Assembly: GCF_003334785.1 (NCBI RefSeq)
Contig: NZ_QOWV01000010.1
Source of the DNA: Escherichia coli
GTDB taxonomy: Bacteria > Pseudomonadota > Gammaproteobacteria > Enterobacterales > Enterobacteriaceae
Length of the DNA stretch: 64,000 nt
Reading direction: 5' to 3' (one strand)
Shown here: positions 12,972-13,044 of the stretch, one piece after another
How positions within the stretch are numbered: the stretch's first letter is position 1
How the letters are laid out: every line of letters starts with the position of its first letter
Program-made: the position numbers and the translations under genes
Notes under the pieces: model-generated
What the model saw: only the letters and a program-made list of their open reading frames with translations
Told to the model about the DNA's origin: nothing
The model's database searches: none

Positions 12972-13044
12972 GGCATCCTCCGGTTAAGTTTTTTCTCATT
13001 AACCGAAGGATACACTCTGGAGTCGACTCCAGAGTCAAGTTTTA
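12972..13044 (-). promoter_or_regulatory. zntA promoter with ZntR (MerR-type) dyad ACTCTGGAGTC-GACTCCAGAGT in a 20-bp -35/-10 spacer
   Basis: Read directly: perfect 22-bp palindrome at 13014-13035; on the minus strand it sits between TTGACT and TATCCT separated by 20 bp, the hallmark of MerR-family promoters. Confidence 0.85.

Follow-up and report, generated by a model that had tools for sequence, protein, structure and literature searches.

The 73-bp gap between yhhN and zntA in Escherichia coli holds a perfect palindrome set between two hexamers with an over-long spacer, and the question that it raises is whether this is the operator of a MerR-type, metal-responsive promoter and what else so short a region may encode. 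PzntA and its regulator ZntR have been a model MerR-type promoter since 1999 and are in wide use in metal biosensors. The site was followed up within a 64,000-nucleotide stretch of E. coli DNA, the whole of which is called the window below. We regard it as close to certain that the site is PzntA, the sigma-70 promoter of the Zn/Cd/Pb efflux ATPase gene zntA, controlled by the MerR-family sensor ZntR. This part of the result is already known; it is textbook biology with nothing new in it. The same 73 bp also encode a leader hairpin, for which a role is proposed here with much greater caution.

The window is E. coli chromosome, and its promoter stretch, from the yhhN stop to the zntA start, is identical to that of MG1655, in which yhhN occupies 3605751-3606377 and zntA 3606451-3608649 (window position = 12971 - (MG1655 position - 3606451)). 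Positions 12972-13044 are exactly the 73-bp intergenic region, with the zntA ATG at 12971, and the minus strand from 13044 to 12972 reads TAAAAC-TTGACT-CTGGAGTCGACTCCAGAGTG-TATCCT-TCGGTTAATGAGAAAAAACTTAACCGGAGGATGCC, then ATG. The TGA stop codon of yhhN (13047-13045) is located 6 nt ahead of the -35 hexamer, which leaves no space for a terminator ahead of PzntA. The 732-aa ORF downstream is ZntA, as it matched NCBIfam NF033775 over its full length (1-732) with 1447.5 bits vs. a cut-off of 1240, and the gene controlled by PzntA is thus a metal efflux gene. A 701-bp stretch around the site matched all 5426 complete E. coli genomes and was annotated yhhN|zntA in every one of them (5426/5426), which together with the NF033775 match upholds the zntA gene call of the preliminary description.

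Table 1. Coordinates of the features discussed, in window positions except for the last row, which gives positions in other loci.
Feature	Position	Strand	Details and basis
yhhN CDS	13045..13671	-	208 aa; ORF list; RefSeq annotation of identical DNA
-35 hexamer TTGACT of PzntA	13033..13038	-	Sequence; PMC3431237; kept in orthologues
ZntR operator, perfect 22-bp dyad ACTCTGGAGTCGACTCCAGAGT	13014..13035		Half-sites 13014-13024 and 13025-13035
Spacer, 20 nt	13013..13032	-	Direct count
-10 hexamer TATCCT	13007..13012	-	Sequence; position fits mapped 5' end
Leader inverted repeat	12973..13013	-	5' arm GUAUCCUUCGGUUAA 13013..12999; loop 12998..12988; 3' arm UUAACCGGAGGAUGC 12987..12973
Monocistronic zntA mRNA start	13000..13001	-	Capped end T 13001; adjacent A 13000 is the canonical +1
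Shine-Dalgarno GGAGGA	12976..12981	-	4 nt (12975..12972) before ATG; GGAGG core (12981..12977): 5 nt
zntA CDS	10773..12971	-	732 aa; Zn(II)/Cd(II)/Pb(II)-translocating P-type ATPase; NCBIfam and RefSeq annotation
MAG operator cores	L003 102-121; L062 5559-5578; L040 11438-11457; L050 4496-4515; L010 3868-3887

The hexamers TTGACT and TATCCT stand on the minus strand with a 20-nt spacer, as had been described and as a direct count confirmed, and this separation lies within the 19-20 bp of MerR-type promoters (vs. the usual 17 +/- 1). The perfect 22-bp palindrome had also been placed correctly, its coordinates (13014-13035) being exact: ACTCTGGAGTCGACTCCAGAGT is its own reverse complement, with gapless 11-nt arms that are 100% complementary. 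The description that it "fills" the spacer has to be given up, as 22 bp cannot fill 20 bp; the dyad runs into the -35 hexamer, sharing its last 3 nt (ACT), and leaves 1 nt (G, 13013) before the -10 hexamer. The distance to the dyad centre is 11 nt on the -35 side and 12 nt on the -10 side.

The operator is identical at 22 of 22 positions to the ZntR consensus in PMC1526738, which lists this very 22-mer, inside a 20-bp spacer, as the site of ZntR. The locus had been called known biology, which was apt, since the sequence is letter for letter the published site, and the window promoter shows no difference from that of the E. coli K-12 PzntA/ZntR system (Brocklehurst et al. 1999; Outten et al. 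1999). TTGACT as the -35 of PzntA and a spacer of 20 bp are reported by the group behind the description of ZntR (PMC3431237), and the same architecture is found in PMC7911910. A 19-bp spacer is stated in PMC9189660; the direct count is 20, as in the other sources. According to a secondary description of the footprint in PMC3431237, ZntR protects the -35, the spacer, and the -10 from DNase I like other MerR-family regulators. A standard promoter scan limited to 16-18-nt spacers found no promoter at PzntA, which, as no other spacers were allowed, is consistent with MerR geometry and is not counter-evidence.

The transcription start had been named in advance as the point on which the reading could be refuted, and the mapped start at 13001 fits the TTGACT/TATCCT pair. 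In the M9 sheet of Supplementary Data 1 of PMC6131387 (SMRT-Cappable-seq), zntA has a capped 5' end at MG1655 3606421, which is window position 13001. This is the T of GTTAATG, with 5 nt between the start and TATCCT, or 6 nt if the A at 13000 is +1; the 5-nt distance is one below the canonical value and within the normal range and the resolution of the method. The primary transcript given there (NC_000913.3 3606421-3608685, forward, 184 reads at the start) fully covers only b3469, and the 3' end of the zntA mRNA that it maps corresponds to window position 10737, where a pattern scan found no canonical terminator. In the same dataset, full-length capped reads extend the RegulonDB operon b3469 to b3468|b3469, and yhhN read-through transcripts covering zntA have thus been observed. 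A Yersinia pestis study also handled yhhN-zntA as one unit.

The anatomy of the promoter, the identity of the operator and of the gene, the fit of the start site, and the conservation of the geometry across Enterobacterales (below) were observed here. ZntR binding, metal dependence, and DNA distortion are taken as reported in the literature. A ZntR dimer would occupy the 22-bp dyad, which lies between the hexamers and takes in part of the -35. As 20 bp rather than about 17 separate the hexamers, RNA polymerase would use the promoter poorly unaided. Apo-ZntR would repress slightly, and the binding of Zn(II), Cd(II), or Pb(II) by ZntR would distort the operator DNA in such a way that the -35 and -10 become usably aligned, with a start at 13001/13000 and a monocistronic zntA mRNA as the result. 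The DNA-distortion mechanism of the MerR family is reviewed in PMC9909328, and a PzntA reporter was very weak without ZntR, repressed at low zinc, and approximately 10-fold activated at high zinc (PMC9189660).

A tblastn search with a ZntR query verified against the MG1655 gene gave no match to zntR in the 64-kb window. The gene is present in 5426 of 5426 E. coli genomes, and we infer its presence in this genome from that universality. Strain 300709, whose sequence matches the window with 100% identity across the 701 bp, has zntR approximately 166 kb from the promoter, and a regulator gene unlinked to its target is the known arrangement (PMC1526738). In MG1655, zntR (b3292, outside the window) is covered by reads that run from rpsM via rpoA and rplQ to yhdN and zntR (b3292-b3298) in PMC6131387; such reads would make zntR co-transcribed with ribosomal-protein and RNA polymerase alpha genes.

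Two other MerR-type promoters help to place PzntA. PmerT of Tn501 and Tn21 shares with it the -35 TTGACT (PMC3431237) and a dyad in an over-long spacer, and MerR, like ZntR, turns from repressor to activator by DNA distortion. The PmerT spacer is 19 bp, however, compared with 20 in PzntA, the mer dyad has another sequence of the 7-4-7 type (PMC1526738), and merR is divergent from and adjoins its target, whereas zntR is unlinked to zntA. E. coli PcopA likewise has a MerR-family metal sensor, CueR, on a dyad between the -35 and the -10, and activation by DNA distortion has been solved by cryo-EM for CueR, according to the review PMC9909328. PcopA/CueR differs from PzntA in its 19-bp spacer, its different dyad, and its response to +1 ions (Cu, Ag, Au) rather than +2 ions.

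Conservation of the promoter was assessed via a scan of one genome per species for the operator core CTCTGGAGTNNACTCCAGAG, which returned at least 120 loci; the taxonomic range is a lower bound, and Yersinia had no representative among the matches listed. The core stood directly upstream of and pointing at a ZntA homologue (45-98% identity) in at least 107 loci, and six further loci among the matches listed had the same promoter cut at the locus edge. Since the search pattern prescribed operator positions 2-10 and 13-21, conservation there is uninformative. TTGACT, which was outside the pattern, occurred at the E. coli offset in 106 of the 107 orthologous promoters among the matches listed, and in all 107 a hexamer with A2 and T6 followed at a distance of exactly 20 nt, in the form TAnnnT in 102. 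The two central operator bases took 11 different dinucleotides in the orthologues listed, as would be expected at the centre of a dimer site. Same-strand yhhN lay upstream in 102 of the 107 orthologous loci listed, usually no more than 21 nt from the -35.

Within E. coli, the 73-bp intergenic region was identical in 5370 of 5426 genomes, and the surrounding 701 bp were at least 99% identical in only 1278. One variant, strain N96 (L123), has a 1-base deletion in the A6 run of the leader loop (12992-12997) with the operator, hexamers, and stems intact; the second variant inspected differs only within yhhN. With an exact published operator, a 20-bp spacer, a fitting start, and a conserved geometry, the original reading of a MerR-type (ZntR) promoter upstream of zntA is well founded.

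A few matches came from elsewhere. A PzntA of the Pantoea/Erwinia type (TTGACT, operator, TAGCAT) turned up in L071, a 257-bp contig with coverage 0.8 from a Paenarthrobacter aurescens assembly, and almost certainly reflects contamination there. In MAGs of Acidobacteria, Bryobacterales, and Gemmatimonadetes, the operator core was found directly upstream of a MerR-family gene (Table 1). TTGACT and TAnnnT are 20 nt apart in L003, L062, L040, and L050, and 19 nt apart in L010. The MerR-family gene of L003 is followed by genes for a DF-family (seleno)protein and then a MerT-like protein, so the ZntR-type operator is reused in a mer-like operon in distant phyla.

The palindrome could in principle be mainly the hairpin of an intrinsic terminator, for yhhN or for plus-strand antisense transcription, with no protein site, which we consider highly improbable. 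As RNA it does form a stable 9-bp hairpin, and a consensus scan flagged 13014-13035 (+) as terminator-like, with a 9-bp stem and then CAAGTTTTAT; the same core followed by a T-run was also seen in an unrelated locus (L093). On the strand of yhhN and zntA, however, the hairpin precedes GUGUAUCCUUCGG, without a U-tract, full-length capped reads in PMC6131387 cover yhhN and zntA together, and among the entries covered of the M9 table of that study no 3' end fell between the two genes. Nothing but antisense RNA lies upstream to be stopped on the plus strand, the T-run is not kept in orthologues of other genera among the matches listed, and the palindrome is the ZntR consensus. As a separate matter, the plus-strand hairpin could stop transcription antisense to zntA.

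That the dyad serves another E. coli member of the MerR family, for instance CueR or SoxR, as its operator is extremely improbable. PzntA loses its zinc induction when zntR is deleted and retains it unchanged when cueR or soxR is deleted (PMC9189660, PMC3431237), the reporter response needs ZntR and zinc (PMC9189660), and the downstream gene encodes a Zn/Cd/Pb pump. The architecture would by itself admit such a regulator, as the metal-sensing MerR-family proteins all use dyads in 19-20-bp spacers, and NCBIfam cannot tie to one metal the MerR-family genes that follow the core dyad in the MAGs of Acidobacteria and Gemmatimonadetes, but the dyad here is the ZntR consensus and is unlike the CueR, CadR, and MerR signals (PMC1526738).

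No other perfect palindrome in the window is as long as the operator; those next in length have 14 bp (42807-42820, 32119-32132, 15121-15134, and 1252-1265), and the 22-mer with up to three mismatches occurs once in the window vs. 0 in 100 shuffles. A perfect palindrome of at least 22 bp arose somewhere in 9 of 200 simulated 64-kb sequences (first-order Markov; about 5%, p ~0.05 per window), and TTGACT-N20-TANNNT occurs twice in the window vs. 0.23 expected, so neither feature is decisive by itself. The second match, TTGACTATGAAACGGAATGCGAAAACTATCAT at 21856-21887 (+), has a spacer without a dyad and is probably due to chance. Both of these figures leave room for a coincidence of palindrome and hexamer pair at PzntA, the probability of which is nonetheless negligible, as the operator is exactly the published one, the hexamers and their spacing are kept in 107 loci from many genera among the matches listed, the site is near-invariant in 5426 E. 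coli genomes, and the mapped start fits; position, identity to the published operator, and conserved geometry in orthologous promoters together exclude chance.

Beyond the ZntR operator, the intergenic region contains a leader inverted repeat (Table 1) that forms a stem of 15 bp, including two G.U pairs. Its 5' arm consists of the last spacer nucleotide, the whole -10 hexamer, and the next 8 nt, and its 3' arm covers the zntA Shine-Dalgarno. The folding energy is -17.6 to -20.8 kcal/mol (z -4.4 to -5.1 vs. dinucleotide shuffles), and RNA started at 13000 is unstructured (z 0.08). Given the mapped start at 13001, only 3 nt of the 15-nt 5' arm are left in the ZntR-dependent transcript; as transcription starts inside this arm, the stem is possible only in RNA begun upstream of PzntA. 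The computed cost of opening the ribosome-binding site (RBS) in E. coli is 22.8 kcal/mol in read-through RNA vs. 7.7 in promoter-started RNA. None of the families of Rfam 15 was found in 12700-13300, the best covariance-model score being 20.4 bits vs. a gathering value of 80, which is at chance level, and a description of a zntA leader hairpin was not found in the literature searched.

A further repeat (I3) links the coding sequence to the operator. Codons 2-5 of zntA (12958-12969, minus strand), GTCGACTCCTGA, are identical at 11 of 12 positions to the operator half-site GTCGACTCCAGA as an inverted repeat, and in 23 of 101 orthologous loci listed these codons agree with TCGACTCCAGAG at 11 or 12 of the 12 positions, synonymous ones among them. 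The ZntA N-terminus is otherwise poorly conserved. This copy could be a ZntR half-site, an RNA partner of the operator in read-through RNA, or a trace of shared ancestry.

Among the matches listed, a hairpin occurs at the same position in most orthologues with sequences that differ by family. Most Enterobacteriaceae have a TCCTCCGGTTAATGA...TCATTAACCGGAGGA stem, Pantoea and Erwinia have GC-rich stems such as GCAGTAGCGGGCGGG...CCCGTCCGTTACTG, and a group including Providencia rettgeri has a TAGAGTTAAT...ATTAACTCTA stem. The segment from the -10 to the ATG has a median folding energy of -18.9 kcal/mol and a median z of -3.7 among the matches listed, with z below -2 in 87 of 105 loci; leaders cut at the expected start, which outside E. 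coli was taken from promoter geometry, have a median z of 0.16. Opening the region from -15 to +6 around the ATG takes a median of 16.9 kcal/mol in read-through RNA vs. 7.1 in promoter-started RNA across the 107 promoters listed, the starts being mapped in E. coli and assumed from promoter geometry in the other species. Shuffle controls on 93 distinct leaders gave 16.2 for the real sequences, 10.0 with everything upstream shuffled, and 9.9 with the shuffling confined to the 13 nt that run from the -10 to the start, and the real leader exceeded this 13-nt control in 82 of 93. About one-fifth of the loci listed, most of them with GC-rich stems of the Erwiniaceae type, have a stem that stops immediately ahead of the Shine-Dalgarno and leaves it uncovered.

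The pairing partners of the -10 hexamer also vary. In per-sequence folds, which lean towards pairing, position 4 formed C-G (n = 31), G-C (n = 10), and A-T (n = 4) pairs, and position 5 formed C-G (n = 51), A-T (n = 16), and G-C (n = 4) pairs, the Watson-Crick partners of these variable positions in the middle of the -10 differing between lineages. In 39 aligned Enterobacteriaceae leaders, the named stem was paired in 85.5% of cells vs. 30-57% when the partners were slid; this stem was named by hand and its pairs counted, and the other tests were alignment-free. Covariation within Enterobacteriaceae is modest (four pairs, 13 cells with both sides changed), and the evidence between families is stronger. 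RNAalifold on MAFFT leader alignments returned no structure for Enterobacteriaceae (A1) or Erwiniaceae (A2), and in A2 indels put both arms out of register.

Most Enterobacteriaceae among the matches listed also have an inner stem conserved in sequence, with the loop AATGAGAAAATTATCATT. In the sampled Escherichia (the window, MG1655, L033, and L082) the loop is shorter, GAGAAAAAAC, and the inner 5-bp stem is gone. Within AATGAGAAAATTATCATT is ATTATCA, which we take to be half of a Fur-box-like motif. A Fur or Zur box in this loop was considered and set aside, as the match to the consensus sequences is partial and the element is absent in E. coli. The Y. pestis study has yhhN-zntA among its hits to Fur-like boxes, and no clear Zur site is reported at zntA (PMC11618457).

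Based on these folds, the leader hairpin may keep read-through transcripts from being translated. When RNA enters from yhhN, the -10/discriminator arm would pair with the zntA RBS and close it, and ZntR-started RNA, without the 5' arm, would keep the RBS open; ZntA would then be made only from ZntR-licensed transcripts. We therefore offer, as a tentative proposal only, that the -10 and discriminator of PzntA double as an anti-Shine-Dalgarno insulator whose design would be kept across Enterobacterales in structure rather than in sequence; that this is at once real and undescribed is possible, yet we would not expect it. The hairpin may alternatively serve as a 5'-terminal stabilising stem, in lineages with 6-9 GC pairs after +1, or as a processing site.

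An insulator of this kind would have relatives among mobile elements. Fold-back inhibition in IS10 and IS50, in which the RBS is occluded on externally entering transcripts, was reportedly described by Davis, Simons and Kleckner in 1985 and by Krebs and Reznikoff in 1986. The 5'UTR of IS200 contains an inverted repeat that sequesters the Shine-Dalgarno (PMC4513863). The zntA leader resembles IS10, IS50, and IS200 in having sequence upstream of its own start that is complementary to the RBS, such that only longer, externally initiated RNAs can form the inhibitory stem. The IS genes encode transposases, whereas the gene here encodes a chromosomal metal pump, and the -10 and discriminator of its own promoter form the anti-Shine-Dalgarno arm.

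As to what follows from these results, the ZntR-controlled promoter serves as a positive control, in that a real regulatory architecture was recoverable from the raw letters. Should the insulator be real, it could explain the non-consensus -10 TATCCT, and it would matter for biosensor constructs in which PzntA is placed behind other transcription units. It would also show how a tightly regulated gene that lies behind another, without a terminator between them, may escape upstream transcription.
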